Below, one piece after another: positions 1 through 33,464 of a stretch of DNA of 45,439 bases. Both the position numbers and the translations under genes were made by a program. Below the pieces are notes generated by a model. It had not been told where the DNA came from. It saw only the letters and a list, made by a program, of their open reading frames with translations, and made no database searches. The stretch covers positions 1 to 45,439 of the forward strand of contig JBBDJV010000001.1 of NCBI GenBank assembly GCA_040879725.1, read 5' to 3'. Numbering within the stretch: position 1 is the stretch's first letter; each line of letters begins with the position of its first letter. The DNA is from Minisyncoccota bacterium. GTDB taxonomy: Bacteria; Patescibacteriota; Minisyncoccia; Phycocordibacterales; GCA-2401445.

Positions 1-157
1 TCTCCTTACAGGAGCAGTACCCCAATTGGATTTTTTCTTCGCCTTTCAGGCTCGAAAAAATGCTCAATCGGCCTGCCTGCCAGTAGGCAGGGCTTCGATT
101 CCCGCACGGAAGCATCCCCATGCTTCCTCTCGGGCACAGTCTCACTACGTTCGCTTG
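1..157 (-). repeat. tRNA-Leu(TAA)-associated structured module (inverted, hairpin-split copy of tRNA 3' end plus 20-bp palindrome); runs off window
   Basis: TTCGATTCCCGC (94-105) + 23-nt hairpin insert (106-128) + CTCGGGCACA (129-138) reproduces the tRNA 3' end in inverted orientation; palindrome at 72-91. Confidence 0.8.
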
Positions 158-242
158 TGCCCGAGGCGGGAATCGAACCCGCACGCCTGTTTAGGGCCGG
201 GGATTTTAAGTCCCCTACGTCTACCTATTCCGTCACCCGGGC
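158..242 (-). tRNA. tRNA-Leu(TAA)
   Basis: Reverse complement GCCCGGGTGACGGAATAGGTAGACGTAGGGGACTTAAAATCCCC...GGTTCGATTCCCGCCTCGGGCA folds as a cloverleaf with long variable arm, anticodon TAA. Confidence 0.95.
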
Positions 243-375
243 ATATATTGCTAAAAACCTATATATATTAGCAGAAACGGTGGAGTAAACCAATAGTTTA
301 CAGTATGCATTCCCAAAAGAAATATATAAGGTATTATATATAGTAATAAACTTTACCAATAAAAAAGATGTAACT

Positions 376-1446
376 ATGTTTGAAAGACCAACAGATGAAA
401 GCATGTCTTTCGATGGAGAAGGAAATCGTGTTGATAATGAAGCTGTAACAGAAAAGGGTATGAGTTTTGATGGTGAGGGAAATCCGGTTGAAGGAGATAA
501 TTTTAATGCAACACCCGACACCTCAAGTACACTCCAATTTGAGCAAACTTCGCAAGAAGAAGCGCCTACTGGAGAAGAGCCTGTTTCTGAATCTCAAGAA
601 GAGCCAAGTGCGGAAGTGTATCCGGAAGCCCCGTATAAACTTCGTCCCCGTGAAGATGTTTATGCACCACAGACTGAGGAACAGCCTACTGACACTACTT
701 CAGTTTCTCAGGAAAGTGGAGGAGAGGAGCCTAATGAAAGTAATGATGTCGAGGGAGAACACGGCCCACCACCTACTGGTGGAGTAGAGAGTGATGCGTC
801 CCAAGAAAACAGCTCGGGGGAAGAAACAGGTGAACAGAAGCCAGAGCCGGCATATGCAGGTGAGAATGCGCAGAATAAAGAAGGAGCAAGGGAAGGTGAA
901 CCATCTCTTCGTGAAATTGGACGTGAGCGAATTACTAAAATTGGTAACTTTTTCAACAAATTCAAAGAATCTTTTCAGAGTAATCTTTTTGTAGCAGGAG
1001 GATCGATGTCACGGTTGCTCCAGAAAATACGAACAACCGGCGTTGCTGGAGCTGAGATGCTTATGGCGGGGCCTGAGGTTGCTGTCCGAGCGGTGGAGGC
1101 AGGGGTAGGGTCTGTAGCAAAAGGATATGAAAAGGGAACTGATGTATTGCGAGCGATAAAAAATAAAATACTTGAAGCAAAAAGTAATCTGCTTAGAAAA
1201 GGAAGGGATGGAATTGAAAAAGCTGTCGAGGCGGTTGTTGATCTCAAAAAAGCCGTGGTTGAAGCAGGAAATCACGCGCTGTATAACTTTGTCGATAAGA
1301 TAACTCGGCCGTTTATTGCATTTCAAAGTGAAAGATTAAAAAGCACAGCAAGATATATGGAAGAGCAGGTTAAGAAAGGGAAGTGTCCCGCTGAAGAGCT
1401 TGAAGGTGTACAAAAGAAACTTAGTCACTTAGCAGGATTAAAATAA
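376..1446 (+). CDS. hypothetical protein, acidic low-complexity N-half with duplicated MSFDGEGN motif, helical C-half
   Basis: 356-aa ORF with ATG start; no recognisable family. Confidence 0.75.
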   Translation: MFERPTDESMSFDGEGNRVDNEAVTEKGMSFDGEGNPVEGDNFNATPDTSSTLQFEQTSQEEAPTGEEPVSESQEEPSAEVYPEAPYKLRPREDVYAPQTEEQPTDTTSVSQESGGEEPNESNDVEGEHGPPPTGGVESDASQENSSGEETGEQKPEPAYAGENAQNKEGAREGEPSLREIGRERITKIGNFFNKFKESFQSNLFVAGGSMSRLLQKIRTTGVAGAEMLMAGPEVAVRAVEAGVGSVAKGYEKGTDVLRAIKNKILEAKSNLLRKGRDGIEKAVEAVVDLKKAVVEAGNHALYNFVDKITRPFIAFQSERLKSTARYMEEQVKKGKCPAEELEGVQKKLSHLAGLK

Positions 1447-1451
1447 GATAT

Positions 1452-1805
1452 ATGGATAAAGAAAGAGAAGAGTTAAAACAATATATTGAAAACGCTGATA
1501 TTCCTGATGAGCTAAAATCCCGAGAGCTGGCTATCGTGGCAAATACTGCGCTTTCAATACCAGAAGTAAAAATGGAGCTAGCGAAGCTTATCAGTGAGGA
1601 TGTTGATGCGACAACTGCTCGTTTGAATATGAATGCTATTCCTCAAAGCAATGAAGAACGTTTGGCGTATAAAGAGTTTGAACTTATATCTGAAGAAGCT
1701 GGGAAAAATCTGAAAAAGGAAATGGAATTAGTTCAAGAAAACCTTGAATTGATTGCTGATCTTTCAAATGAAATAGAAAAAGTTTCGGCGAGTTCTTCGG
1801 TGTAG
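1452..1805 (+). CDS. hypothetical acidic helical protein
   Basis: 117-aa ORF 5 nt after upstream stop, followed by terminator. Confidence 0.7.
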   Translation: MDKEREELKQYIENADIPDELKSRELAIVANTALSIPEVKMELAKLISEDVDATTARLNMNAIPQSNEERLAYKEFELISEEAGKNLKKEMELVQENLELIADLSNEIEKVSASSSV

Positions 1806-1814
1806 TAGAGAAAT

Positions 1815-1845
1815 AAAAAAGGGCGCGCTCTGCGCGCCCTTTTTT
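1815..1845. terminator. bidirectional intrinsic terminator
   Basis: AAAAAAGGGCGCGC-TCT-GCGCGCCCTTTTTT. Confidence 0.85.
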
Positions 1846-1878
1846 ATTTCTCGAAGAATCGAAACCATTCTGCTTTTT

Positions 1879-1902
1879 GATGCCACGGCGAGAATCGGTC
1901 AC
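1879..1902 (-). repeat. direct repeat of tRNA-Cys 3' end preceded by GTGACC
   Basis: 16-bp identity GCCACGGCGAGAATCG (1882-1897 vs 1940-1955); minus strand reads GTGACCGATTCTCGCCGTGGC. Confidence 0.8.
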
Positions 1903-1937
1903 AAATCACTAAGTCTGCATAGAATATTTAATCTTTG

Positions 1938-2009
1938 AGGCCACGGCGAGAATCGAACTCGCGCATAGGAGTTTTGCAGACTCCTGACTTACCACTTGTC
2001 TACGTGGCC
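1938..2009 (-). tRNA. tRNA-Cys(GCA)
   Basis: GGCCACGTAGACAAGTGGTAAGTCAGGAGTCTGCAAAACTCC...GTTCGATTCTCGCCGTGGCCT; anticodon GCA, U73 discriminator. Confidence 0.95.
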
Positions 2010-2021
2010 ATGAAAATCATT

Positions 2022-2345
2022 TTATGTGTTCCGTCCAAGCTCGTCAATTTTTTGTCGGTTTTTCTCTCCGTAATCAATAGTAATAGTGATATAAGGAATT
2101 CGCCCCAGACGAGTGTGTTCCTTTATGTACTGCGCCAAGTCTCCTCGCTTTCTGTGGGCAAAGTCGGCAACATTTTCTTCATATTGTTCTGGGAGTACGG
2201 AGAGTCCAATGTGTACATTTTTTCCTCCTTCAGAAACAGTAACTCGAGTAACCGTAATAAGTGCCGGACCAGCTGATTCACGCAAAAAGAATTCAGCGGC
2301 AGCGCGCATCAGAACATCTCGAGTCCTCTCATCTTTAATATTCAT
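2022..2345 (-). CDS. rbfA: ribosome-binding factor A
   Basis: LITVTRVTVS...RIPYITITIDYGE pattern; directly downstream of infB. Confidence 0.85.
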   Translation of the reverse strand: MNIKDERTRDVLMRAAAEFFLRESAGPALITVTRVTVSEGGKNVHIGLSVLPEQYEENVADFAHRKRGDLAQYIKEHTRLGRIPYITITIDYGEKNRQKIDELGRNT

Positions 2346-2348
2346 TGA

Positions 2349-3851
2349 TTACTTTGTTATTGTTGTGATTGCAACAAGTATATCACCGTTTGTAATTTCT
2401 ACTCGTGATTCAACCTGTAGCCCCAGCTCACCTTCCTGAATTGAAGAAACTTCAATCTTTTGTTGTTGTAGCCCAAGTATAACACCTGATCCTATTTCGT
2501 TTTCTCTTCGTATAACTTTTATCTTCTCACCTTTTTTCAAAATTCCATCAAGCATTTTACCTCCGATAACCTGCTTATCACGAACCTTACTGAAGCACAT
2601 GAGTACTTTCATTTTTCCGGTAATTTCCTCTATATGTTCAATCGGTTTTCGTTTTAGAACTTCTCCTTCGAGCCACTCGCGGAGGCGGTAAATAATATCA
2701 AAGGTTTGAATGGAAACCGCATCCCTGTCCGCGAGTTGTTGTGCTATGGAATCAATTCCAACATGAAAACCAACAATAGTCGTTCCTCCTTTTGAACCCG
2801 CGAGTTTTACGTCTGCTTCTCCAATAGAACCCACGCCACTTTGGATAATTTTAATCTTAACCTTATCGGTTGATATTTTCTGTATCTCATGTTCAATAGC
2901 TTCAATACTTCCTTGTACGTCAGCTTTAAGAATAAGCGGAAAAGTTACAACTCCTTCTTCTTGTGTTTCTATATCGAGAGGCGTTGCCTCTGTGTTGTTC
3001 TTTTTCTCTTCACGGGCTTTTTCAGCTTCTTTTTTCTTTTCAAAGACTGCAAACGTATCTCCGACAGATGGCGGTATGTCCCAGCCGGTAATTCTGATAG
3101 GACTAGAAAAGCTAGCCTCTTTGATAGATTTTCCAAGAAAGTTTTCCATAATACGTACCGGTGCGAGTGACAGACCAGCAAGGACAGCTTGTCCCTGTCG
3201 TATGGTTCCGTTTTTAACAACCAATGTTGCTGAGATTCCTTTTTGAGGGTCGCGGTTTGTTTCAATTACGACACCACTTGCGAGATCATTTGGGTTTCCG
3301 GTAAATCCTTCAAGGTCTGCAATAAGCAAGAGGGTAGAGAGAAGCTCGTCCATCCCTTTTCCAGTTACAGAAGAGATAGCTACGCTTGATATGGTTCCTC
3401 CGAGTCCTTCAACAAAAATATTATGTTCCATTAACTCACGACGAACCTTGTCAGGGTCGGCGTTTTGTTTGTCACACTTTGTTAGTGCGATCATGTAGGG
3501 AGTACCACTTTTCTGTATTGCTTCATACGCTTCAAGCGTTTGCGGTTTGACGCCTTCTTCAGCAGAAATAACCAGCACAACAATATCAGATGTCTGCGCT
3601 CCACGAGAACGCATAGCATGAAATGCTTCGTGTCCAGGCGTGTCGAGAAAAGTAATAGTTCGTTCTGTTCCTGATTCGTCTTTGTGGTGTACTTCGTACG
3701 CGGAAATATGTTGCGTGATTCCTCCCGCTTCACCCGCGACAACAGCTGATTTTCTTATGTAGTCGAGCAGGGAAGATTTACCATGGTCGATATGTCCCAT
3801 GATTGCAATAACCGGTGGTCGGGGTATGGAGTTGTTTGTTTGTTTTGTCAT
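2349..3851 (-). CDS. infB: translation initiation factor IF-2 (short form lacking long N-terminus)
   Basis: RPPVIAIMGHIDHGKSSLLD, GGITQHI, FLDTPGHEAF, ILKADVQGSIEA, FDIIY. Confidence 0.97.
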   Translation of the reverse strand: MTKQTNNSIPRPPVIAIMGHIDHGKSSLLDYIRKSAVVAGEAGGITQHISAYEVHHKDESGTERTITFLDTPGHEAFHAMRSRGAQTSDIVVLVISAEEGVKPQTLEAYEAIQKSGTPYMIALTKCDKQNADPDKVRRELMEHNIFVEGLGGTISSVAISSVTGKGMDELLSTLLLIADLEGFTGNPNDLASGVVIETNRDPQKGISATLVVKNGTIRQGQAVLAGLSLAPVRIMENFLGKSIKEASFSSPIRITGWDIPPSVGDTFAVFEKKKEAEKAREEKKNNTEATPLDIETQEEGVVTFPLILKADVQGSIEAIEHEIQKISTDKVKIKIIQSGVGSIGEADVKLAGSKGGTTIVGFHVGIDSIAQQLADRDAVSIQTFDIIYRLREWLEGEVLKRKPIEHIEEITGKMKVLMCFSKVRDKQVIGGKMLDGILKKGEKIKVIRRENEIGSGVILGLQQQKIEVSSIQEGELGLQVESRVEITNGDILVAITTITK

Positions 3852-3889
3852 ATGCGTTGTATCTGTTATTGAGCTTGGTCATGGTAGTA

Positions 3890-4366
3890 TTATTTTCCAA
3901 TCCCTAACTTTTCTTGAGCTTGTGTGAGTGCGTCTTTTTCTTCTGCGGAAAGCTCATGTACTGCTGAAAACTTTTTAATCGGTTTTGCAAAGACACTTAC
4001 ATGGTCTCTTCCGTAAAGGCTTGAAAGTACTACACCGTCACCGTTTTCATTTACAAATGCTGTCGCGAAGCTTTGGTTTCCTCCCGCACCACTTCCTTTG
4101 AAAGGATTAAAACGAATAGTTTCGTTTCCTTGGATGCATTTACGCAAACGAAGCTCAACTGTTTTTAAATACTCTTCTGCACCTTCCTTGAATTCAAGAT
4201 ATTCTTTAAGTTCGCTTCTGACATGGGCTAATGTATCGTCGAGGTTTTTTGAACCTCTTCCAAGGAGGAACTTTCTCAACTTCATTTCCATACGAATGTG
4301 GAATAAAGAGAGTATAAGGACTAATGCCAGGAGGATATATATGATAAGAGAGGAGTCAATAGTCAT
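3890..4366 (-). CDS. DUF4446-family membrane-anchored protein
   Basis: N-terminal TM helix; RFNPF...GGNQSFATA...NGDGVVLSSLYGRD...FAKPI...LSAEEKDAL. Confidence 0.75.
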   Translation of the reverse strand: MTIDSSLIIYILLALVLILSLFHIRMEMKLRKFLLGRGSKNLDDTLAHVRSELKEYLEFKEGAEEYLKTVELRLRKCIQGNETIRFNPFKGSGAGGNQSFATAFVNENGDGVVLSSLYGRDHVSVFAKPIKKFSAVHELSAEEKDALTQAQEKLGIGK

Positions 4367-4479
4367 ATAAAAGGCGCAAAATATGCGTAGTAGTGATTAT
4401 ACATGTTCGGGACGTGTTTGCAAAAGTGTGGTGTCGGTATTTGTTGCGGAAAAGGGAAAGGTGTGTTTCTATGGTGGGT

Positions 4480-5613
4480 ATGCAAAGACACTATTTTGAC
4501 TATGCTTCCACAACGCCGGTTTCGGATGCGGTGAAAGAAAAAATGAATACCGTGCCGTTTGGCAACCCCGGGAGCCTACACGAAGAGGGGCGTGTTGCAA
4601 GCGAGTTACTCCAGAGTGCAAGAAAGAAAGTTGCAAATGCACTAAAGGTCAAAGCTGGGGAGGTGGTGTTTACTCATGGAGGTACGGATGCGAACATGCG
4701 CGCATTACTTGGAGTTGTTAAGGCAAAAAAAGAAAAGGGTGTTTCGTATAGCGACATGGAGGTGGTGGTATCGCGGATAGAACATGCTTCAATTTTAAAT
4801 ACAGCAAAAGAGCTCCTGCGCCTCGGCGTCACAGTGCATTACGTTTCTAATAATGAAGAGGGAATAATAAGTCCATCAGAGCTTTGTTCGTATATTACAG
4901 AAAAAACAGTTCTCGTAAGTATCGGGTACGTAAATAATGAAATTGGAACTATTCAACCCGTGCGGGCAATCGCAACAAAAGCTAAAGAAAAAAATCCTCA
5001 CGTTCTCGTACACACGGACGCGTGTCAGTCTCCGCTGTATGTACCAGTCGCGCCACACGCACTTGGAGTTGATCTCCTTTCGCTTGATGCGCAAAAGATT
5101 TACGGACCAAAAGGAGTGGGGGTATTGTTCGTGAGACAAGATGTAGAACTTTCTCCGCTCGTAGATGGAACGCAAGAGCGAGGTATCGTACCTGGTACCG
5201 AAGCTCTTCCACTTATTGTTGGAATGAGTGAAGCTCTTTCGGACGCTGTTTTAAAACAAGAGGATGAAGCAAAACGAATTGCGGGTATACGAGACGAGCT
5301 CTTTGAATATATTGAAGATAAAATCCCTGGAGCGATACGTAATGGTAGTAAGGAGTCGAGAGTGGCGAATAATATAAACATATCGCTCCTTTCGGTTGAT
5401 ACTGAGTATTTAGTCATGCAACTCGATGCGCGAGGTTTTGCTATTTCAACCAAAAGCACCTGCGAACGAGATATGCCGTATTCTCACGTGGTAAAGGAAC
5501 TTGGTGGAGATGAAAAGAGAGCCTATCACACACTACGTATTTCACTTGGGCGTGACTCAGACTTGGAAAATGCCAAAAAACTTATAGATACTATTGTAGA
5601 GCTTACGACTTAG
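4480..5613 (+). CDS. iscS: cysteine desulfurase (IscS/NifS family)
   Basis: YFDYASTTP, FGNPGSLH, NNEIGTIQP, HTDACQ, AQKIYGPKGVG, STKSTC; start placed at ATG 4480. Confidence 0.9.
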   Translation: MQRHYFDYASTTPVSDAVKEKMNTVPFGNPGSLHEEGRVASELLQSARKKVANALKVKAGEVVFTHGGTDANMRALLGVVKAKKEKGVSYSDMEVVVSRIEHASILNTAKELLRLGVTVHYVSNNEEGIISPSELCSYITEKTVLVSIGYVNNEIGTIQPVRAIATKAKEKNPHVLVHTDACQSPLYVPVAPHALGVDLLSLDAQKIYGPKGVGVLFVRQDVELSPLVDGTQERGIVPGTEALPLIVGMSEALSDAVLKQEDEAKRIAGIRDELFEYIEDKIPGAIRNGSKESRVANNINISLLSVDTEYLVMQLDARGFAISTKSTCERDMPYSHVVKELGGDEKRAYHTLRISLGRDSDLENAKKLIDTIVELTT

Positions 5614-5651
5614 TCCTTGTACGAGAGCCTTCATTCCGTTATCATTCTAAT

Positions 5652-6485
5652 ATGGAAGAGCTCACCAAACATCAAGTTGTGTTACTTATGCTTCTCATAA
5701 GTTTCGTAACTTCAATTGCGACAGGCATTGTGACTGTTTCTTTAATGGACGAGCAGAACCCGGGAGTAACCCAGACAGTAAACCGTGTTGTCGAAAGAAC
5801 GATTGAGCGAGTTGTCGCAAGTGATGTTCCCGAAGAGTCGCAAGCTGCGCAAGTTGTAACAGAGGTACGGACGGTACTTTCAGAGCGAGAGTTTGTAAGT
5901 GATTTAGTGGAAAATATTAAGAAATCAGTTTTCGAGGTGTTTGACACAACAGAGGAGGAAGTAATAGGAAAAGCAGTTGTGGTAGATAGTAATAGGTTGG
6001 TGTTACCCCGATTTTCATTTGATCCTGAACACAGCTATGTTGTGATGCAGGGAGAAAATACACTAGCCGTTCGTTCCGCAACCACTACCGACAAGATAAC
6101 GATTTTAACCGTGGAAGGTAGTGTGCCGTACGTTCCTCTACGAGAGACCCTCAACCTTCCTTTGGGAACACGGCTCATAACGCTCGGAGGAAAAAATGGA
6201 GATGCAGTAGCACAGGGAATACTAACCAATACCTCTTACGCAGAAGATTCCGCCACGACAACGCCAGGTGAAGAACGTTCAGAAAAAAAGGTTATTTCAG
6301 TAAGCAGTACCGCAGGATATGATTCTTCTTACCTAGGCGCTCCACTTTTCACAGAGAAAGGGGAATTAATCGGACTCTATGAACAAAAAGGTGAATACGG
6401 CTATGCATATATACCTATTTCTCTAAAAAGTCTTATTCTCAGTACCACAGCAACATCGAGTGCTGACACTAAAAACCAAGAGTAG
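5652..6485 (+). CDS. membrane-anchored trypsin/HtrA-like fold protein (degenerate)
   Basis: N-terminal TM helix; C-terminal YLGAPLFTEKGELIG resembles NSGGPL..GEVIG but lacks the catalytic Ser. Confidence 0.6.
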   Translation: MEELTKHQVVLLMLLISFVTSIATGIVTVSLMDEQNPGVTQTVNRVVERTIERVVASDVPEESQAAQVVTEVRTVLSEREFVSDLVENIKKSVFEVFDTTEEEVIGKAVVVDSNRLVLPRFSFDPEHSYVVMQGENTLAVRSATTTDKITILTVEGSVPYVPLRETLNLPLGTRLITLGGKNGDAVAQGILTNTSYAEDSATTTPGEERSEKKVISVSSTAGYDSSYLGAPLFTEKGELIGLYEQKGEYGYAYIPISLKSLILSTTATSSADTKNQE

Positions 6486-6570
6486 AGCCATTTATTGACA
6501 TTTCTATATTTTGTCAGTATAATGATTACATCGTGTAAGTTAGTTTTTACACCAATATATAACAACATAT

Positions 6571-9264: not shown

Positions 9265-9318
9265 AGAGACTCCGCGTGGTTGAATGAGTGAGAGCGGTGT
9301 GGTACACTGCTCTCTGAC

Positions 9319-9402
9319 GCGTCGGTGGCGGAGTGGTCAATCGCAACAGACTGTAAATCTGTCGCCCTTCGGGCTACGTAGGTTCAAATCCTACCCGGCG
9401 CA
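9319..9402 (+). tRNA. tRNA-Tyr(GTA)
   Basis: GCGTCGGTGGCGGAGTGGTCAATCGCAACAGACTGTAAATCTGT...GGTTCAAATCCTACCCGGCGCA. Confidence 0.95.
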
Positions 9403-9860
9403 CATAAATACCCCGCAAGGGGTTTTTATATGCGCCGGGAGCAAGGCAATTTGAATTGCCTTGCGTTAGGATTTGAAAGCCGGAGCGTTGCACGAGTTTG
9501 CCTGAAAGGCAAGGCGAGTGCCGCGAGGCGGGGTAGCCTGCCTGCCGGTAGGCAGGCGCAAAATTTTCGTCAGAAAATTTATGTGTGACCAAATCCTACC
9601 TACCCGGCGCACATAACAAAAAACCAACTCTTCACGAGTTGTTTTTTGTTATGCTTGTGTGGAGGATTTGAACAGGAAGGGGCCTGCCTACCGGCAGGCA
9701 GGTCGGGAAACCTGTGGTTTCCCGTGGAGTGAGAATGCGTGTTACACATTCGCAAGGCCGGAGGCAGACGTGCCGAGGCGGGGTCGCGGAATTTTTCAGC
9801 AGAGAAAAATATCCGTGACAGGCAGTGAGTGTTTTTACCGAAAGACAGAGCCCTCCAAGC
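9403..9860 (+). repeat. two tandem tRNA-Tyr-associated structured modules
   Basis: Antisense tRNA copy 9431-9477 split by a hairpin, scaffold, GTGACC + sense copy (~9585-9613), second antisense T-arm GGATTTGAAC, palindromes at 9537-9556 and 9683-9702. Confidence 0.8.
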
Positions 9861-12885: not shown

Positions 12886-12909
12886 GGTTGCTTTGATTCC
12901 TTTACTTTT

Positions 12910-13242
12910 GTGCGAGCCCGCCCAGACTCGGTCACTAGTTACTAAGTTTTTTGTATCGCTTCACTCACAAAAAACAAAGTACTCTTGACCTGGGCTCGTC
13001 CGTTTTGAGAGTACTCAAAACATGACTCCGCCTTTCTCGTCTGGACAGACACACAGCAGTGTGTGTCTTGCGGACCCTCCGTTTCTCTGCGGGCCCTCGT
13101 TCATTCCTATGTTTCGTTCTCAGGAAGAAAAGAACGAAACATATTGGAATGTTTGCTTCGCAAAACTCGCTAAATAGTACGCAGGTACTATTTAGCCCCG
13201 TTCCTCGAATGTTCGAGTCTGGGCTGTCCCTCCACTTCGTTG
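12910..13242 (-). repeat. tRNA-Trp-associated structured module
   Basis: Inverted copy 13211-13230, hairpin-split inverted copy ~13034-13077, scaffold shared with Gln and Leu(CAA) loci, GTGACC + sense copy 12911-12935. Confidence 0.8.
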
Positions 13243-13340: not shown

Positions 13341-14234
13341 CTACTTTTTCGAAAGCAGAAAGGATGCAACACGTTCTTGTATCTTTTGAAGGTCTTTCGG
13401 CTCAAACCACTCTACTTCCTTGTTCCGCTTAAACCATGTCATTTGCCGCTTTGCGTATTGGCGTATAGCGGTTTCAAGTTGAACTGACATGTCTTCAAAT
13501 GAAAGCTTATTTTGGAGATAGTAGGCGAAGTATTTATATTCAAGACCCAGCTCTTCCATACGCTCAAAAGAAAGCCCATTGTCATGGAGCTTCTTTACTT
13601 CATGGAGCAAGCCATTCGCTATTCTTTTTAGTAGTCTTTCGTGAATGCGTGCATGTAGCTCTTCGGTGGGAAGTATAAGTCCTACGTAGAGCGTGTCATA
13701 AGTTTTTTCTTGTGAAAGTGGTTCTACAGAACCCAAGGCCTCGATAATTTCCAAAGCGCGTATAAGTCTGCGGGGGTTATGTCTGTCTATTGTCTGTGCG
13801 CGTTTTTTATCTTTTTCTAACAGTAATGCATAAAGCTCTTCTGTATTTTTCTGTGACAACTCTGCTCGTAGTTTTTCATTCGGTGGTACTGCGGGAAGTT
13901 GCGCTCCATTTACAACAGAATCTATATACAGCCCGGTTCCTCCACATAGTATAGGCAGTGAGCCCTGTGTATGTATATGTTTAATAACAGACGTTGCGTG
14001 CTCTATAAAGGATTTTAGTGAGTACGTGTCTTTTGGGTCTGCGATATCAAGCAGGTGGTGGGGAACTCCTCGCATTTCACTCTGAGTAATTTTTCCAGAG
14101 CCGATATCGAGCCCTTGGTATACCTGACGTGAGTCAGCAGAAACCACCTCACCATTATAGGAAAGGGCAATCTCCACGGCGATGTCGCTTTTACCTACTG
14201 CGGTTGGTCCGACGATGGCTACTATTTTCTCCAT
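13341..14234 (-). CDS. miaA: tRNA dimethylallyltransferase
   Basis: IVGPTAVGKS, SADSRQVY, GGTGLY, YAKRQMTWF; start at MEKIVAI. Confidence 0.96.
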   Translation of the reverse strand: MEKIVAIVGPTAVGKSDIAVEIALSYNGEVVSADSRQVYQGLDIGSGKITQSEMRGVPHHLLDIADPKDTYSLKSFIEHATSVIKHIHTQGSLPILCGGTGLYIDSVVNGAQLPAVPPNEKLRAELSQKNTEELYALLLEKDKKRAQTIDRHNPRRLIRALEIIEALGSVEPLSQEKTYDTLYVGLILPTEELHARIHERLLKRIANGLLHEVKKLHDNGLSFERMEELGLEYKYFAYYLQNKLSFEDMSVQLETAIRQYAKRQMTWFKRNKEVEWFEPKDLQKIQERVASFLLSKK

Positions 14235-14634
14235 ATGTGAAAGTATTGCGTTTTCTGAGGAAAATGCAAGGTAGGCTCTGGCTTTCAAGTCTCACCTCCG
14301 CCTACAAAAATATAATCAAAATATGTTCCACATATTTCTCATTATTTTTGTGTTTTTATATAACTATACTCGAACCTACTTTGCCAACCGATAGTTCAGC
14401 ACCACACACACCTTTGCTTTTCCATTTTTAAAAATCCTCCACCAAGAAAAATTATGTAAGCTTAAAAGGTGTGTATGGCCTTCTACTCTTCAAGTATTCA
14501 GGCAGTACGGGGCTAATACTTTTACACAATTTTTTGTAGAAAGATCAATATATAATGCTAAACTTGATAATGTGTAAACATGTGTAGTCGATGCATGTTC
14601 TAAAATTATTCACTTAATTAAATTACAAAAACTT

Positions 14635-16922: not shown

Positions 16923-17079
16923 CACCAAGTAACCTCTGTATTAGCTTATTTTTCTGCAAAAGTCAGAAAAATCCTAAGTACTCTCGAATCTTACAGATTC
17001 TGTACACCTTTTGGCTCTTTTGCTTCACATGGGTTCGCAAAACAGCTCAAAAGGTCTTGCGAAAGCGCCCCGCGCTTTC

Positions 17080-17569
17080 TCACCCGGCTCGTCCGTTTTG
17101 AGAGTACTCAAAACATGACTCCGCCTTTCAAGTCCCACACGCACACAAAGCAGTTTGTGTGCTCTCCGGCACGGGGAGGGGGCCTGCCTGCCGGCAGGCA
17201 GGTCGGGGAACGGGAGTTCCCCGTGAAGTGAGAATGCGTGTTACGCATTCGCAAGGCCGGAGGCAGACGTGCCGAGGCGGGGTCGCGGAATTTTTCAGCA
17301 GAAAAATATCCGTGACAGGCAGTGAGTGAGTCTTCGAACGAGCGTTGGAAAACCGTGGGTTTCCAAGTTGTGCCGGAGACTATTTCTGGACTTGTCCCGC
17401 AGTTACTAAGCTTTTTGTTTTGCTTTGCTCACAAAAAGCAAAGTACTGCTGGACGCGGCTCGGGTACGACCAGAAGACTGGTCGGCTTCGCACCCTCCGC
17501 CTTTCAAGTCCCACCTCCGCCTACAAAAATATAATCAAAATATGTTCCACATATTTCTCGTTATTTTTG
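17080..17569 (-). repeat. composite tRNA-Leu(CAA)-associated structured modules
   Basis: Inverted tRNA 3' copies at 17502-17524 and hairpin-split 17127-17172; ~44 bp shared with Trp locus; ~150 bp shared with Tyr locus; palindrome 17183-17202. Confidence 0.8.
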
Positions 17570-17651
17570 TGCCGGAGGTGGGACTTGAACCCACACCCCT
17601 TGCGGGACACGATTTTGAGTCGTGCGCGGCTACCAATTACGCCACTCCGGC
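17570..17651 (-). tRNA. tRNA-Leu(CAA)
   Basis: GCCGGAGTGGCGTAATTGGTAGCCGCGCACGACTCAAAATCGTG...GGTTCAAGTCCCACCTCCGGCA. Confidence 0.95.
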
Positions 17652-17893
17652 AGATGTTCTACATGCTTTAAAAACTCTTTCCCAATTCCCGATTTTAGAT
17701 ATTTTTCTCTTTCTCGAGCTTCTTGTCTTGTGTTGTATTTCTCTAGCAAGATTACCTCAAAGGGGCCGTACGGTCTAGTGGTTTTGTTTTTCCCCAAGTT
17801 GTGAGCACTTATTCTCTGTTCAGGATTACCAGTAATTCCTACATATATATAATTTCTTTCTCTACTTTTTAATGCGTATGTATAATAGCTCAT
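17630..17893 (-). CDS. small standalone GIY-YIG endonuclease
   Basis: YTYALKS...YIYVGITGNPEQRISAHN...EAREREKYLKSG; stop codon lies inside tRNA-Leu D-loop. Confidence 0.88.
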   Translation of the reverse strand: MSYYTYALKSRERNYIYVGITGNPEQRISAHNLGKNKTTRPYGPFEVILLEKYNTRQEAREREKYLKSGIGKEFLKHVEHLPEWRNW

Positions 17894-17907: not shown

Positions 17908-17993
17908 GCTACCAACCTGCCTGCTGTCTGCCTACCAACCTGCCTGCCGCCTGCCTGCCGGTAGGCAGGGCAGGCAGGTTACGCCACTCCGGC
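17908..17993 (-). repeat. duplicated tRNA-Leu 5' end interrupted by nested 20-bp palindromes
   Basis: GCCGGAGTGGCGTAA (17993-17979) | 63-bp palindrome cluster | TTGGTAGC (17915-17908). Confidence 0.85.
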
Positions 17994-17994
17994 A

Positions 17995-18030
17995 ATGCGC
18001 CTCTTCGGCGCATGCGCCGAAGAGGCGCAT
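17995..18030. repeat. perfect 36-bp palindrome
   Basis: ATGCGCCTCTTCGGCGCATGCGCCGAAGAGGCGCAT equals its reverse complement. Confidence 0.9.
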
Positions 18031-18198
18031 AGACCGAAAAGTACTTTTTTATCAATATTTTTCTTCTCTCAATTTCTCTTTTAAAACTCTTTCCCGTAAA
18101 TATATCTACGTTTGATAAGTCTACTTAAATACACACTAAAAATCAACAATGAAGAGTTTGGAAGTGTGTGTTAGAATACGTAAGTAATTCGAAAAAAA

Positions 18199-24797: not shown

Positions 24798-24836
24798 AGT
24801 TTGTTTATTGTAACACTTTTCTATATACTGAAGAGC

Positions 24837-26102: not shown

Positions 26103-26111
26103 TAGAGAGGT

Positions 26112-27044: not shown

Positions 27045-27074
27045 CACGAATTCAAACTCTGGTATACTTACTAG

Positions 27075-28463
27075 ATGAAGAAACGTCCTCGAAGATCACG
27101 TTTTCTCTTTTCTATTGCCGTAGGAAGTATTTTTTTCGTTCTCACGATACTTTTTCTTCCACCGGAAACAAAGGATATTTTCACATACGCACAGTCTCGA
27201 CACAGTGAGTCGGGTGGTTTTATTGCTCGAGTGAACACAACATTTTCATCGCTCGCGCATACCGGACACTTACTACTCGCGCAAACACTGGGAGCAAATG
27301 CCGCCGAATATGACCAGAATACTTCCGGCAAGAAAATTCTTATTAATATGGAAGCGAAGCACGTAACGCTTTTATTAAATGACTACACTATCGGCGTGTT
27401 GCCAATTTTGCATATTGCAGATGACACTACGCCACATGCGCCAGTAACCGGCATGTTTTCTTCTGTTAAAAAAGAGCGTGAACACTTTTCTTCTTTTCTT
27501 AGGGCGTGGTTTCCGTATACCACCTCGTTGTCTGAAAATATGTTTATACACGCGCCAGTGGTAGGTGGAGAGAGAGGAACGTTTGTGCTAAGCGAACAAG
27601 ATGCGCGAAGTGTCTATGTGTTTGCGGATTCAGATACTGATGTTGTTATTGTAAAGGGAGATAAGGATGACCTAAACAGTGGGAAGCAAACAAAGGTCTA
27701 TGTTACGGATGAAAGTGTAGGTATACCTGAGATAAGCGCAGAAGCGTATCTCGTGGCAGACGTAGAAACCGGTGAAATACTTCTCTCGAAAAACACTACT
27801 GTTTCTTTGCCCATTGCTTCCATTACCAAACTCATGACTGCTCTCGTGTCAAAAAATAAACTCAACCAGTATCATTTGATTACGCTACTACCAGAGGCAT
27901 TCCATGTTCCATACGCAGAGACGGGAGGGTTACGTGAAGGTGATGAAATACAAATTCGGGAGATACTGTACCCCATACTGATTGAATCAAGTAACAGCGC
28001 CGCGCACGCGCTCGCGCTTTACGCTGGGTACGATGCTTTTTTAAGCGAAATGAATAGTACCGCGAAAAAGATTGGCATGCGTACCACGCACTTCAGCGAC
28101 CCGAGTGGTGTGTCCTCCGGGAACACATCTACGGCCGAAGATATTTTTTCTCTAATTCAGTATTTGTACAACAACGAACGAGATATTCTAAACATCACAC
28201 GACTTCCTTCAAAGGAAACACTTACGTACCATTGGGAAAACAATAACCGTTTCGTTCACCTCGAAAATTATCTTGGAGGGAAGACGGGCGAAACAACCGC
28301 CGCAAAACAGACACTTGTTTCGCTCTTTAATATGAAGCTTTCCGAGTTTGAAAGTAGACCCATTGTGATTGTCGTTTTGCGAAGCGACCAGCGTGAGAGT
28401 GATGTCTTGCGACTCTACGACTACTTGCGCGAAGCTGTTTATTTCGCTACAACAAAGGAGTAA
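27075..28463 (+). CDS. D-alanyl-D-alanine carboxypeptidase (S11) with N-terminal YkuD-like domain
   Basis: PIASITKLMTA (SxxK), SSN, GKTG. Confidence 0.85.
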   Translation: MKKRPRRSRFLFSIAVGSIFFVLTILFLPPETKDIFTYAQSRHSESGGFIARVNTTFSSLAHTGHLLLAQTLGANAAEYDQNTSGKKILINMEAKHVTLLLNDYTIGVLPILHIADDTTPHAPVTGMFSSVKKEREHFSSFLRAWFPYTTSLSENMFIHAPVVGGERGTFVLSEQDARSVYVFADSDTDVVIVKGDKDDLNSGKQTKVYVTDESVGIPEISAEAYLVADVETGEILLSKNTTVSLPIASITKLMTALVSKNKLNQYHLITLLPEAFHVPYAETGGLREGDEIQIREILYPILIESSNSAAHALALYAGYDAFLSEMNSTAKKIGMRTTHFSDPSGVSSGNTSTAEDIFSLIQYLYNNERDILNITRLPSKETLTYHWENNNRFVHLENYLGGKTGETTAAKQTLVSLFNMKLSEFESRPIVIVVLRSDQRESDVLRLYDYLREAVYFATTKE

Positions 28464-28464
28464 T

Positions 28465-29526
28465 ATGAAAAATAAGGTGGTGAGTACGATGTTTTATAGC
28501 TTGGGAGCTATGCTTTTGGGAGCACTTGGCGTATTTGCTGTGTTTGAAGGAGGCTCGGCTATTGTGGCTTCAGTAGCTAAGCCAGGCGGAGTGTATGTTT
28601 ATCAAGCTTCACCTATTCAGACAATTAACCCTTCTTCACAAAAGAAATTGCAGACAGCGGAAGTGCTGTTTGTAGGTGATATCATGACAGACAGGGCGGT
28701 GCGAAGAAGAGTTGAGGCACGGCTCGACGGTTCCTATGAACGGCTTTTTGAAAAAGTTCCTGAATTAAAAGAGGCGGATATTACTTTCGGAAATTTAGAA
28801 GGGCCGGTATCTGACAAAGGGGAGAATGTAGGAAGTATTTATTCGTTTCGTATGGATCCGCAAACAGTTCCCGCACTACGTTCTTCCGGGTTTGATATTG
28901 TTTCTGTAGCAAACAACCATGCGGGAGATTGGTCTTTCACTGCGTTTGTTGACACTCTAGAGCGACTAAATCAAGGGGGAGTGCATCCAGTAGGAGGAGC
29001 GATGAGTAAACAAGAAGCACGAACCCCAATAATTTTTAACGTGGACGGTATTTCAATCGGATTTCTCGCATTTACTGACACTGGTCCAGACTGGCTTGAA
29101 GCGGATGAAAAAGCGGGAATACTACTTGCTTCAGATCCCAAGCGCTTAGAGTATATTCGTGAAGCACGTGCGCAAGTGGACCATCTTATCGTGTCGTACC
29201 ATTTTGGTGATGAGTATGAGTTCGGTTCAAACGAACGACAGCAAGAGCTCTCACGAAGCTCGATAGATGCAGGGGCGCGTGTTATTGTTGGGCATCACCC
29301 GCATGTTATTCAAGAGGTGGAGCAATACGGCGATGGTTTGATTTTCTACAGTTTAGGAAATTTTATTTTCGATCAGTATTTTTCTGAGGAGACAATGACG
29401 GGCATGGTGGCACGTGTATTTTTTACAAAAGAAGGTATTAGCTCGTGGACAGAAATGGTAAGTGAGCAGGATGAGTTTCTTCGACCGGTGCTTAAGAACA
29501 GTGTTACCCGAAAATTTAACTACTAG
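28465..29526 (+). CDS. CapA/PgsA-family metallophosphoesterase
   Basis: FVGDIM, GNLEGP, ANNH, YHFG.EY, GHHPHV, YSLGNFIF. Confidence 0.9.
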   Translation: MKNKVVSTMFYSLGAMLLGALGVFAVFEGGSAIVASVAKPGGVYVYQASPIQTINPSSQKKLQTAEVLFVGDIMTDRAVRRRVEARLDGSYERLFEKVPELKEADITFGNLEGPVSDKGENVGSIYSFRMDPQTVPALRSSGFDIVSVANNHAGDWSFTAFVDTLERLNQGGVHPVGGAMSKQEARTPIIFNVDGISIGFLAFTDTGPDWLEADEKAGILLASDPKRLEYIREARAQVDHLIVSYHFGDEYEFGSNERQQELSRSSIDAGARVIVGHHPHVIQEVEQYGDGLIFYSLGNFIFDQYFSEETMTGMVARVFFTKEGISSWTEMVSEQDEFLRPVLKNSVTRKFNY

Positions 29527-29527
29527 C

Positions 29528-30508
29528 ATGACACAAGGATTTTGGAAAAAACTAAAAAAGCCGATTTTGGTACTGGCGCCAATGGCGGATGTAACCGACA
29601 CGGCTTTCAGGAGAATAATCGCAAAGTACGGAAAGCCGGATGTTACGTGGACTGAGTTTGTTTCTGCGGACGGTTTGGCGAGCGCTGGGCGTGACGTGCT
29701 GTTGCGTGACCTTGAGTATACAGAAGCAGAAAGACCTATTGTGGCTCAACTGTTTACCTCTATTCCCGAACACATGGAACAAGTGGCAAAGCTGTGCAGA
29801 GAGCGTGGGTTTGATGGTATAGATATTAATATGGGTTGTCCTGATCGTTCCATAGAAAAGCAGGGGTGTGGTTCGGCAATGATAAAAAATCCGGAGAGCG
29901 CAAAAGAGATTATTCGTGCCGCGAAACGCGGGGCGGGGGATATTCCCGTGTCGGTAAAAACAAGAATTGGATACAATAAAAATGAGTTGGATACATGGCT
30001 TCCCGCTCTTCTCTCCGAGGAGCCGGCGGTGGTAACCATACACGCTCGCACACGAAAAGAAATGTCTCTTGTGCCGGCGCGATGGGAGCATATAAAAGAG
30101 GCAGTAGATATCCGTAATTCGCTTGGTTCCGAAACATTAATTATCGGAAACGGTGACGTGCTCGATAGGGAAGATGCGCTACGCAAGGTGGATGAATCGG
30201 GAGCAGACGGAGCAATGCTCGGGCGGGCTATTTTTGGAAATCCGTGGCTGTTTAACCCTGACGTAAAGAAGAGTGACTTGTCACTTTCAGAGCAACTTCG
30301 CGTAATGATTGAACATACAAAAGCATTTGAATCGCTGTTGGGTGATATTAAGAGTTTTGCGATAATGAAAAAGCATTACAAGGCATACGTAAACGGTTTT
30401 GATGGCGCAAAAGAACTTCGCATAAAGCTTTTTGAAGAGGCGGAAAATGCTCTGCAAGTGGAAGCTATTATTGTCGATTTTTTGAAGAATAATCCAGAGC
30501 TTCAATAA
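29528..30508 (+). CDS. dus: tRNA-dihydrouridine synthase
   Basis: LAPMADVTD, IDINMGCP, SVKTRIG, TIHART, GNGDV, GRAIFGNPW. Confidence 0.94.
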   Translation: MTQGFWKKLKKPILVLAPMADVTDTAFRRIIAKYGKPDVTWTEFVSADGLASAGRDVLLRDLEYTEAERPIVAQLFTSIPEHMEQVAKLCRERGFDGIDINMGCPDRSIEKQGCGSAMIKNPESAKEIIRAAKRGAGDIPVSVKTRIGYNKNELDTWLPALLSEEPAVVTIHARTRKEMSLVPARWEHIKEAVDIRNSLGSETLIIGNGDVLDREDALRKVDESGADGAMLGRAIFGNPWLFNPDVKKSDLSLSEQLRVMIEHTKAFESLLGDIKSFAIMKKHYKAYVNGFDGAKELRIKLFEEAENALQVEAIIVDFLKNNPELQ

Positions 30509-30786
30509 TTATAAAGAGTGGGGTATAGTGTATATAGAGCATCCTGCTCTTGGAAATAGAGTAAACCCTCAAAGAAAGGTGAGTATGTCTACATTCCTTA
30601 ATTCAGTTAATTCTCGTCATTTCGAAACAAACGTAACTTTCTGAAAGGGGGTGATCACTTTTCTCTCCATATGTCAGAGAGCGTATCGTGTATTTGCTCT
30701 CAGTTCCTCTAATCCAGGTATAGCGCTGTGGAGTATCGCAGTATTGGTTTGCGCGATAACCAAAAATACTGTGCGAATTGAAAATG

Positions 30787-30817
30787 AGGGCGGGCTCTTT
30801 CGAGCCCGCCTTTTTTC
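30787..30817 (+). terminator. intrinsic terminator
   Basis: GGCGGGCTC-TTTC-GAGCCCGCC-TTTTTT. Confidence 0.8.
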
Positions 30818-30859
30818 TTGTATACTCAGATCAGAATCAGATTTAGGGAAAGGAAAAAT

Positions 30860-31480
30860 ATGACTAAAGCAAAGATTTCGTTCTCTAAGATGCGTAAGTG
30901 CTTAAAAGCACTTGCTACACTACTGGATGAGTGTGATGTATTGTGTGAGGGTTGCCATAATCTGGTATCAGATGATGAGGTGCTCAAGAAACTGAGCTTC
31001 AAGCAGTGTTGCCGACTCTTCCGAGAAATACCGGATAATGAAATGCGTTTGATGTTTATAATGAAAGCGCTTTCATTGAAAACAGAGGTGTGGAGTGGTG
31101 AGGAAAAAAAATACCTCTTTAGATTAGCGAAAAAATATGGCGTTAATCTGAAGGAAGTTGTATCCCAAGCGCCTTCGGGCGCTTTTTTCTATTTTACGTT
31201 GACGAAGTACAGGTGCTTTGATAGTGTTCTCAGTAGATGGAGCCTGTTGCTCCAAATCAAGTGCAAAAGGACGGGTTGGCGCGCTGCAATGTTTCCTCGG
31301 GCCAGTTTCTCGGCCACACAACAAACTAACAACATTGTACAACCGTCCTCACGGAAAACAGGGGTAGGTGGGATACGTGTGAGATCAAGGACTTGTTTCC
31401 TTCGATTTCCCTATCAACTACTTGCCCCTGTTTTTTTCTGCCTATCTTTTTCTAAAAAATCCTTATCTAGTGTTTTTTGA
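30860..31480 (+). CDS. hypothetical Cys-rich protein; 3' half probably spurious read-through
   Basis: AAGGA SD before ATG 30860; internal terminator at 31167-31188. Confidence 0.45.
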   Translation: MTKAKISFSKMRKCLKALATLLDECDVLCEGCHNLVSDDEVLKKLSFKQCCRLFREIPDNEMRLMFIMKALSLKTEVWSGEEKKYLFRLAKKYGVNLKEVVSQAPSGAFFYFTLTKYRCFDSVLSRWSLLLQIKCKRTGWRAAMFPRASFSATQQTNNIVQPSSRKTGVGGIRVRSRTCFLRFPYQLLAPVFFCLSFSKKSLSSVF

Positions 31481-31964
31481 CAAGGAGAGTATTGTGTTGC
31501 TAGTATAGCTATGTGCACACAACTAGTGCTTGCAGGAAACTCGCATTACGTGCACAGGTGGAGAGGATGCGCTTTCAATATTTGCGCAATAATTAGTCCT
31601 CTCCACCTTTTTGTTGACAGTGTATAGTGCTCTGGTGTATAAAAGTTATTGGTTGTCCTTGTGGTCAAGGACATGATGTCCCTGTTTCGGCTTTAACACT
31701 CACGAAAGGAGTGCAATGAGGATTCGAGGTCCGCCTTGAACAAGACAGGTAGAGAAAGTACATACAACCTAACGATTGTAAACCACCTTTCTCTACCTGT
31801 TTTTTTATTGACGTACAAAAAGGAGGAGGGTAAACTTATTAGTAGTGGTGATACTTTACTGCGCATGCATGTTGGTAGGATTAGACACCCTTATGACTTG
31901 GTTTGCGGTGCGCAGATAGGGAGGTAGGGCGGAGCAGTCGAAGACTGCTCCGCCCTTTATTTTT
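31199..31964 (+). ncRNA. four tandem promoter-to-terminator small RNA units (putative)
   Basis: TTGAC(A/G) at 31199, 31477, 31614, 31808 with 17-18 bp spaced -10 boxes; long hairpins + U tracts ending 31437, 31612, 31806, 31964. Confidence 0.55.
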
Positions 31965-32006
31965 GTATTTTTTCTTATACCGCTGGTATTTGCTATACTA
32001 CTGTGT

Positions 32007-33074
32007 ATGACAAAGACGAGCACACAAGACCATATTGCATTTTATAGAAAATATCGACCAGCACACTTTGATGAAGTAATAGGACAAGAACACATCGTTT
32101 CTGTTTTAAAAGAATCAGTTGCACGTAAGTCAGTTGGGCATGCGTACTTGTTTGCTGGTTCACGAGGTACAGGGAAAACCAGTGTTGCTCGCATACTCGC
32201 CAAAGAGCTTTTGACCGACGCAAATGATATTTATGAAATAGACGCTGCTTCAAACCGTGGTATTGATGATGTTCGTGCACTTCGTGAGGCGGTAACATCG
32301 CTTCCTTTTTTCTCACAGTTTAAAGTCTATATTGTAGACGAGGTGCACATGCTTACTAAAGAAGCATTTAATGCACTGCTTAAAACTCTCGAAGAGCCTC
32401 CCAAACACGCAATTTTTATTCTTGCTACAACAGAGATAGATAAACTTCCGCAGACTGTTGTGTCACGGTGTCAGACCTTTACGTTTAAAAAACCCACCCG
32501 CTCTGAGCTAGTAGAGGTAGTAAAGTCAGTAGGGAAAAAAGAAGGGTATAGTGTGGAGGAGTCTGCAGCGGAGCTTATCGCAATCCTTGGAAACGGAGCA
32601 TTCAGAGATACGCATGGAGTACTTGAGCAGGTTGTGTCAGGAGTTTCAACGAAAACCATCACCGTTCTTGATGTAGAGCGAATTACCGGAGCTCCGAAGG
32701 GAGAGCTTGTGAATGATATTGTCGGCTCCATTGCAAATCGTGTGATTGAAAATGGTTTGAACGCAATACGAAAAGCAGGAAAACAAAATATCGATATGAC
32801 ACTCCTTACGAAGCTCGTAACAGAGAAAGTGCGCGCGGTTCTTCTGTTGCGTATAGCACCGAATATGCGAGAAGATATTCTGTCAGACTACACACCGGAA
32901 GATGGAAAATTTCTTTCAAATTTGGCAGAATCAGGAAAGGAAATAAACTCAAAAACGCTTCTTGCTTTGCTCGAGGTGCATGATTTTCTCGGAAAGGGAG
33001 ATGTTCCGGAATTACCACTAGAACTTGCACTCGTGAAGATTTTAGAGCAAAATGAGAAGCCAGAGAAGAAGTGA
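32007..33074 (+). CDS. dnaX: DNA polymerase III subunit gamma/tau
   Basis: YRKYRP, GSRGTGKTS, EIDAASNRGID, DEVHML, LLKTLEEPP, SRC. Confidence 0.96.
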   Translation: MTKTSTQDHIAFYRKYRPAHFDEVIGQEHIVSVLKESVARKSVGHAYLFAGSRGTGKTSVARILAKELLTDANDIYEIDAASNRGIDDVRALREAVTSLPFFSQFKVYIVDEVHMLTKEAFNALLKTLEEPPKHAIFILATTEIDKLPQTVVSRCQTFTFKKPTRSELVEVVKSVGKKEGYSVEESAAELIAILGNGAFRDTHGVLEQVVSGVSTKTITVLDVERITGAPKGELVNDIVGSIANRVIENGLNAIRKAGKQNIDMTLLTKLVTEKVRAVLLLRIAPNMREDILSDYTPEDGKFLSNLAESGKEINSKTLLALLEVHDFLGKGDVPELPLELALVKILEQNEKPEKK

Positions 33075-33156
33075 GTATAAATTAGTGTATAAAAGAAGAG
33101 TTGTGACCGAGTCCCTGACTCGAACACAATAGAAGTAAATGGTAGAATGCTGTCAT

Positions 33157-33227
33157 TGCCCGATCGTCTAATGGTAGGACGCTTGGTTTTGGTCCAAGTA
33201 ATTGGGGTTCGAGTCCCTGTCGGGCAG
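33157..33227 (+). tRNA. tRNA-Gln(TTG)
   Basis: TGCCCGATCGTCTAATGGTAGGACGCTTGGTTTTGGTCCAAG...GGTTCGAGTCCCTGTCGGGCAG; U1-A72, G73. Confidence 0.95.
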
Positions 33228-33464
33228 CATAAAAATAAAGAGCCGGATGTGATAACATTCGGCAATTTTATTTTTACCTGACCGCAGGGACGAGAAAGGC
33301 GGAGTCGGTACCTGCCTACCGGCAGGCAGGTACAAGACGAGCACTTCAGTGCGAGTGCTTGTCGGCGAGCCGGGGTCGAGAGTACTTTGTTTTTTTTATG
33401 ATCTTGAGCTTGTCGAAAGAGAAATAAAAAACTTAGTAACTCGTGACCGAGTCCCTGTCGGGCA
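33228..33464 (+). repeat. tRNA-Gln-associated structured module
   Basis: Degenerate antisense copy CTGACCGCAGGGACGAGAA, scaffold AGGCGGAGTC...ACTTAGTAACTCGTGACC, sense copy 33448-33464, palindrome 33311-33330. Confidence 0.8.

Follow-up and report, generated by a model that had tools for sequence, protein, structure and literature searches.

The stretch of DNA that we have analyzed (the window from here on) comprises 45,439 nucleotides of contig JBBDJV010000001.1 from a Minisyncoccota bacterium whose assembly amounts to 874 kb in 22 contigs. A conspicuous component of this window is a 20-bp palindrome, CCTGCCT(G/A)CC(G/A)G(C/T)AGGCAGG (the 20-mer), found six times at the flanks of tRNA genes, together with a gene for a small GIY-YIG nuclease lodged at one of them. 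The original prediction had listed the six copies and placed all of them within ca. 400 bp of a tRNA; their coordinates proved exact and the distances to the nearest tRNA are 66, 134, 280, 367, 299, and 83 bp. Shuffled windows contain a mean of 0.01 copies and none of 100 shuffles reached six. At Rfam gathering scores the window gave six tRNA matches and nothing else, and the palindrome matches no known structured RNA family.

The scaffolds flanking the tRNA genes are a repeat family of their own (window positions 1-156, 9404-9860, 12890-13241, 16960-17568, and 33229-33470), in which a hairpin is followed by an inverted copy of the tRNA 3' end (in many cases), a conserved body, the motif GTGACC, and a direct copy of the tRNA 3' end. 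The copy at 72-91, a rare variant with a CCAG loop, lies in the scaffold anchored by and downstream of tRNA-Leu(taa) (157-242, minus strand), and three copies of this scaffold elsewhere in the genome are empty, with no base gained or lost at the junction (k=0). Two scaffold units come next to tRNA-Tyr(gta) (9319-9403, plus strand). The first contains the copy at 9537-9556, for which only distant empty forms were found, and the whole unit is absent from the sister species G001, so that the scaffold appears to be mobile too. The other copy of this region (9683-9702) has an orthologous site at the G001 tRNA-Tyr from which exactly these 20 bases are missing. A perfect palindrome at 17183-17202, at a site of the same type as that at 9683, is found in the scaffold downstream of tRNA-Leu(caa) (17569-17651, minus strand). 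The last copy, at 33311-33330, stands between GGTA and TACA in the scaffold anchored by tRNA-Gln(ttg) (33157-33228, plus strand), and one empty form with four mismatches corresponds to it at k=0; a 2-bp TA duplication is not strictly excluded here, while the related scaffolds (GGTATACAAG) indicate a clean insertion, with the loose end of one contig as further, weak support.

The remaining locus is the most complex. The intact tRNA-Leu(caa) overlaps the 3' end of the nuclease gene (17630-17893, minus strand), and on the other side of this gene lies a dead 5' piece of the same tRNA, plugged by palindromes about 45 bp upstream of the gene. It consists of the duplicated first 15 bases of the tRNA (17979-17993, minus strand), an outer palindrome (17939-17978) for which this duplicate was the target, and a segment (17909-17938, minus strand) that comprises what is left of the duplicated D-arm piece (17932-17938) as well as another half-palindrome, itself accompanied by a repeat of this piece. 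The outer copy sits between GTAA and TTGG of the duplicated piece and is itself split 11/9 by a complete inner copy (17950-17969), inserted at CCG/G without duplication, the very structure that the original prediction had described. In G001 the outer copy is present at the same place, alone and unsplit, which indicates that the inner copy came later. All ten nested cases found by script split the outer copy at CG/G, and among them are a 20-mer within a 21-mer variant and a 21-mer variant within a 20-mer; the fixed split point and these mixtures are not accounted for by local slippage.

Empty alleles offer a glimpse of how the palindrome enters its sites. Their absence everywhere was to count against the original prediction, and they are present both in this genome and in the sister species. 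In the genome and its relatives an empty form at k=0 was found for 15 of the 23 copies tested, and none for the other 8. Among 229 distinct sites in the fetched loci, 19 non-nested ones have an empty form within the same locus; 16 of these filled/empty pairs neither gained nor lost a base, one has a 1-base overlap, and two are partial nestings. No target-site duplication is seen in those 16 nor in both orthologous G001 pairs, and replacement of 3-5 target bases was not seen for the 20-mer among the within-locus pairs. Among the junctions listed for contigs of four sequencing runs none skips the 20 bases, and no RNA holder of the palindrome was among those listed; neither result bears on the insertion one way or the other. 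An assembly artefact was ruled out by the presence of the 20-mer in genomes of named strains, in complete chromosomes, and in contigs of other studies. The 20-mer is a clean insertion without target duplication and a real, recently active micro-element.

Within three mismatches the genome contains 20 copies, and 24 family members if the 21- and 22-base variants are included, i.e., a dispersed extragenic palindrome with many copies that, by our reading, amount to roughly ten junction types. For nineteen of the 24 a tRNA call is no more than 500 bp away, versus 15% of the bases outside open reading frames (ORFs) (p = 4e-12), a generous background because relaxed tRNA calls were included; the remaining five belong to the same scaffold repeats and are no farther than 370 bp from a contig end. 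Housekeeping genes had been said to be free of copies and, indeed, none of the 24 is in a recognized gene (six overlap mechanical ORFs inside scaffolds). The claim that the palindrome was added after the scaffold needs a refinement. Empty scaffold forms exist, but the copies at C1:72 and C6:36908 are both of the rare variant and have flanks that are nearly identical, and several sites occur repeatedly in the genome, so some copies spread together with the scaffold and not all are independent insertions.

In the common asymmetric form the fold of one strand contains a G-T wobble and that of the other an A-C mismatch. If the wobble strand is taken as reference, the non-nested asymmetric sites are at a purine/G-or-T step in 64 of 76 cases (24% expected from the background), versus 11 of 76 on the opposite strand: insertion is directional. 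One 21-mer in the genome (C17) breaks this pattern. When the flanks of 66 oriented and of 110 symmetric sites were tabulated, only the bases adjoining the element turned out to be conserved, and the preference involves just two bases, unlike the insertion 3' of a fixed 4-5 base target of the IS200/IS605 type. We also considered whether hairpin loops are targeted; for the 76 non-nested sites the probability of falling at the 3' edge of a predicted loop averaged 0.10, versus 0.04-0.09 at ten offsets, a weak preference that we do not claim.

Beyond this genome, a scan of 1 of 64 parts of the species collection leads to an estimate of ~26,000 stretches with the exact 20-mer, and among the record titles are Patescibacteria, Bacteroidota, Omnitrophota, Nitrospiraceae, Chloroflexi, planctomycetes, and delta proteobacteria. 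The palindrome is thus widespread, and for the most part it sits inside other repeats. The closeness to tRNA genes holds for our genome but not in general, since only 11 of 80 genome loci picked by the palindrome, with full flanks, have a tRNA within 700 bp. Many others of the 80 carry their copies within REP-like (repetitive extragenic palindromic) hairpins or tandem repeats, as judged by eye. A random distribution had been named as another finding that would speak against the prediction, and the placement is far from random. In one genome (G125), 11 of the 12 fetched copies (of 16) are at one site of a larger repeat; in another (G085), eight copies occupy eight different sites. Both new insertion and passive spread therefore occur. 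The palindrome is also present in 55 viral stretches, two of which have a GIY-YIG relative.

The stand-alone product of gene 17630-17893 (87 aa) matches PF01541 (E 6e-18) with residues Y6, Y17, R27, H31, and E63 in place, its catalytic positions being conserved (invariant columns). Its best matches in the PDB are 1ywl and 1zg2, which have been termed bacterial Slx1 members (PMC1564403). No fused forms of the window protein scored in what was a weak search, and no relatives were found in viral_contigs or in GenBank phages. The layout of tRNA piece, palindrome, and nuclease gene recurs in other loci chosen by protein similarity. Ninety such loci, minus eight that were short, duplicate, or without a hit, left 82 homologues. 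A hairpin of the CCTG type is found no farther than 200 bp away for 17 of the 20 with at least 50% identity, for 5 of 10 at 45-50%, for 6 of 19 at 40-45%, and for 1 of 32 below. The window protein falls in a 99/96 clade, spanning two phyla, of which 15 of 16 members are beside such a hairpin. Along the tree the hairpin label changes 7 times, versus 24.7 when shuffled, although the tree has 88 columns for 82 rows and related genomes are not independent. At the same tRNA positions the more distant homologues are accompanied by small hairpins of another kind, with the ends YCYGCC...GGCRGR, and dead tRNA copies are plugged at the same positions by different hairpins. Among 40 relatives some GIY-YIG match is present in 11 of 11 with the palindrome, but also in 18 of 29 without it. 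In 101 genomes of the Winogradskyella family a close homologue accompanies the palindrome in 20 of 30, versus 8 of 71 palindrome-free genomes, an odds ratio of 15.8 among kin that are not independent. The comparative support for the putative GIY-YIG partner is strong, and the link to GIY-YIG genes is seen in two settings, at tRNA cassettes and in in-frame insertions (see below). The original prediction had put forward this nuclease as partner, and co-occurrence, the tree, and cassettes enclosed by arms (see below) support it, while its role as the mover of the palindrome stays inferred.

Another way to approach the partnership is to look for the two 10-bp arms of the palindrome separated by cargo. 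We searched 401 Bacteroidota genomes and 401 genomes of the phylum of the window, and separated arms appeared in 18 of the former (control 9) and in 4 of the latter (control 1); about half of these matches are due to chance, and only those around a whole gene have been used. In one of them (the L380/L407 site) the arms enclose a whole GIY-YIG domain, in frame inside hsdR, and a second DNA case of a bracketed domain, also in frame, is found in another gene (L408). Three cases have arms around a tRNA gene (L352, L393, L400). In L352:1767-1955 (G085) the arms, with a complete tRNA-Val(gac) between them, interrupt the D-loop of a tRNA-like gene, and a GIY-YIG gene lies just upstream. In L400:838-946 and its flanks (G775) a dead copy of tRNA-Arg has four or more different palindromic inserts, and inside one of these lies an intact tRNA-Arg(tct) gene. 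In viral contigs the arm-pair search gave four matches, none with a tRNA, that looked like chance; a viral match for the bracketed domain was an unrelated protein, and the plasmid matches were distant.

At the protein level, the best 120 of 252 longer proteins retrieved with a profile of the bracketed domain contain 124 inserted domains. Thirty of them are bracketed by LPA...RQAG peptides, at nine host-gene sites, and 58 have the peptide of a whole palindrome just upstream (versus 8 of 1417 control windows), proportions that are inflated by the arm peptides contained in the search profile. Two of the nine sites are known as DNA (L380/L407 and L408) and seven as protein only. For HsdS, the one site of the nine with an empty homologue available, a single residue separates the flanks in the homologues that have no insert, which is what a clean insertion within a codon would give. 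Most of these in-frame GIY-YIG insertions (P0007-P0121) are in restriction-modification genes (HsdS, HsdR, HsdM, DUF1156 methylases); some proteins have two, and one insertion is in an iron-containing alcohol dehydrogenase.

The nearest characterized pair is SsnA and the NTS of Neisseria meningitidis. SsnA binds and cuts at the NTS hairpin, and a mobile origin has been proposed for NTS-ssnA-NTS (Chenal et al., 2025; PMC11893778). Like it, the window gene codes for a single-domain GIY-YIG protein of ~90 aa beside a short repeated hairpin, and the NTS stem, CCCGC/GCGGG, resembles the arm ends, CCTGC/GCAGG. There are also differences. The published SRM pattern has no match in the window nor in the flanks of the 82 homologues, by a strict test that also misses near-NTS flanks such as those of L294; the 20-mer is devoid of the CGTCATT leader, and the tree places the window protein apart from the six homologues with NTS-like flanks. 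Here we have filled and empty alleles, nesting, arm-bracketed genes, and cargo, whereas for Ssn the parts of the paper considered here describe cutting alone (PMC11893778).

These observations taken together suggest that the 20-mer is, rather probably, the arms-only, non-autonomous form of a micro-transposon, with the GIY-YIG nuclease as its predicted mobilizer. The full form would consist of two arms, as in the 20-mer, around a GIY-YIG domain of roughly 90 residues. The nuclease would bind the paired arms as a single-stranded hairpin, in the way that SsnA binds NTS, and would cut at the foot of the stem, freeing the hairpin strand. This strand would then be joined into a nick at a purine/G-or-T step in a single-stranded target, through strand transfer or by host ligase. 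In this genome the likely supplier would be gene 17630-17893. Copies would survive where they are harmless, i.e., in tRNA-flank scaffolds, dead tRNA pieces, and other repeats, or in frame within genes if their length is a multiple of three, and they would also multiply passively with larger repeats. A bolder version, which we advance tentatively and with more doubt than confidence, is that of a new class of DNA transposon, in which the 90-residue domain would both cut and join, an autonomous element would measure ~285 bp, and the 10-bp arms might move any cargo (nothing, another hairpin, a tRNA gene, or the nuclease itself) into single-stranded DNA without leaving a scar.

Several facts weigh against the nuclease as mobilizer. 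To our knowledge, GIY-YIG nucleases are hydrolytic cutters and not joiners. The bracketed domain has only 32-34% identity to the window protein, and no arm-bracketed nuclease was found in this genome. Ten of the 30 palindrome-bearing Winogradskyella-family genomes are devoid of a close homologue; G085, with its eight copies at eight sites, has none. A GIY-YIG relative is found within 700 bp at only 2 of the 80 palindrome-picked loci. Y1/HUH transposases co-occur with the palindrome in the same family as well (19 of 30 versus 24 of 71 genomes, odds ratio 3.4). To these have to be added the non-independence of related genomes, the 88 columns of the tree for its 82 rows, the profile-inflated proportions, and the fact that the support for the predicted mobilizer is comparative.

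Single-stranded, hairpin-based insertion without duplication is a hallmark of HUH transposition. The palindrome could accordingly be a REP-like hairpin moved in trans by a Y1/HUH transposase (RAYT, i.e., REP-associated tyrosine transposase, or IS200-type), with the GIY-YIG gene as a passenger or neighbor in tolerated places. The duplication-free insertion would fit, as would the known link between RAYT and REP (PMC3733652), the co-occurrence of Y1 genes, and the three RAYT-like proteins that the genome encodes. We nevertheless find this unlikely: these three proteins score below the NF047646 cut-off, their genes are flanked by other short palindromes and have no 20-mer nearby, no GTAG or CGTC tag accompanies the copies, and 11 of the 30 palindrome-bearing genomes have no Y1 match. 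Besides, the gene enclosed by the arms is a GIY-YIG, and the 22 arm-pair matches, which were inspected for GIY-YIG and tRNA alone, brought no HUH gene to our attention. A known REP/RAYT pair that fully explains the palindrome had been foreseen as fatal to the original prediction, and no such pair explains it. Similarly improbable, in our opinion, is that the nuclease only cuts, nicking tRNA-like or hairpin targets in the manner of Ssn or of homing enzymes, and that host repair then captures a hairpin, the 20-mer being a repair footprint. SsnA binds a hairpin and cuts adjacent single-stranded DNA, with no joining reported in the parts of the paper considered here (PMC11893778). The variable cargo between the arms and the different hairpins at the same positions of dead tRNA copies would agree with such a capture. 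Repair capture, however, usually leaves ragged junctions, and here the junction is exact in 16 of 19 pairs, with a single point and direction of insertion in 10 of 10 nested cases.

We regard as very improbable that there is no dedicated mobilizer at all, the palindrome having arisen by polymerase slippage or template switching and spread only by scaffold duplication and gene conversion. The sites that recur in the genome, the two copies with a common rare variant and flanks, the one larger-repeat site of G125, and the X-X-Y-Y reading of the nested form would be expected from it. Yet inner and outer copies often differ, including the 20-mer within 21-mer and the reverse, and one and the same sequence is found at unrelated sites across many phyla, with an oriented target preference that holds for all of these; for new sites this route is largely refuted and it stands only as a second way of spreading. 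Hardly credible, finally, is an RNA copy inserted by a reverse transcriptase, with the GIY-YIG protein nicking the target as in Penelope-like retroelements. The strand obeying the target rule does fold with a G-T(U) wobble and the tRNA cargo has only a few bases of leader and trailer, but the genome has no PF00078 match (one model, on a draft assembly). Target-primed reverse transcription, moreover, normally leaves a duplication.

The element also differs from other kinds of mobile DNA. In miniature inverted-repeat transposable elements (MITEs) and insertion sequences (ISs), an autonomous form has inverted ends around the enzyme gene and an empty form keeps only the ends. The palindrome family has the same two-form anatomy, with terminal inverted repeats common to the nuclease-bearing form at L380/L407 and L408, but it makes no target duplication, the enclosed protein is a PF01541 and not a DDE transposase, and the forms measure just 20 bp (empty) or ~285 bp (full). 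Free-standing GIY-YIG homing endonucleases, e.g., SegB of phage T4, sit in tRNA clusters, and homing copies the gene into the cognate empty allele. A GIY-YIG gene lodged at tRNA genes is reminiscent of them, but the 20-bp unit is found at many sites that are unrelated and so is the full form, instead of at a single cognate allele, and the window protein has no DNA-binding extension. The palindrome appears to work like a single-strand element of the REP or IS200 type, but it fails the defining features of each. It has in common with REP/REPIN-RAYT systems that they are short non-autonomous extragenic palindromes mobilized in trans by a linked enzyme (PMC3733652, PMC3116915). It departs from them in having no GTAG/CGTC tag, doublet unit, or flanking HUH gene, in its sequence, unchanged across phyla, and in its putative GIY-YIG partner. 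In the HsdR protein MCA0838 a recent in-frame insertion of a minimal Slx1-type GIY-YIG, possibly through parasitic mobility, has been described (Dunin-Horkawicz et al., 2006; PMC1564403). That was one case, with palindromic ends unmentioned in the main text, whereas here there are nine sites with arms plus an arms-only form.

No description of the palindrome element was found in the open literature, including searches for exact sequences and peptides, with subscription journals outside the search. The letters CCTGCC are absent from the main text of PMC3733652, whose repeat tables in figures and supplement, outside that check, may bear on the novelty. The novelty of the element depends on the enzyme inferred here, and with an HUH mobilizer it would be a REP element of a new kind. 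With the nuclease as mobilizer, the GIY-YIG would join the short list of folds that move DNA without a reverse transcriptase. These would be the smallest autonomous and non-autonomous elements known to us. A testable answer would also be at hand for the spread of palindromic repeats without RAYT, left open for the CGTC repeats (PMC3733652) and brought up for NTS-ssnA-NTS as well (PMC11893778). The stray LPAGRQ/PACRQAG peptides and the GIY-YIG domains inside restriction-modification proteins would be accounted for, and an enzyme of 90 residues that works with ends of 10 bp and inserts without a scar could be of use as a tool.

Some additional features of the genome and of related loci are worth recording. 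The three RAYT-like genes (G000:C13:8844-9686, C8:107463-108131, and C15:100377-101018; L325-L327) each have their own palindrome on both sides. A second stand-alone GIY-YIG gene (G000:C18:16900-17561; L329), downstream of tRNA-Ser(gga), belongs to another clade and has a different repeated hairpin leader ahead of it. At G000:C17:13899-14080 there is a relic cassette, in which a 21-base variant plugs the duplicated 5' piece of tRNA-Val and the place expected for a nuclease gene is down to about 70 bp. Six loci (L197, L198, L200, L206, L308, L309) show tandem units of a tRNA piece with palindrome plus a GIY-YIG gene ahead of the intact tRNA, i.e., the cassette amplifies in place. Within the window, a near-perfect 50-base inverted repeat (17988-18037), absent there in G001, is directly upstream of the duplicated tRNA-Leu piece. 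Scaffold-like remnants at 38813-38854 and 39356-39443, including a copy of the tRNA-Gln 3' end, flank gene 38920-39333, which by eye we take to be a low-molecular-weight phosphatase or ArsC-like protein, with no tRNA called nearby. A 77-base repeat of the tRNA-Leu(caa) scaffold (17495-17571) recurs at 14276-14352, at the start of gene 13341-14288, which resembles miaA by eye.

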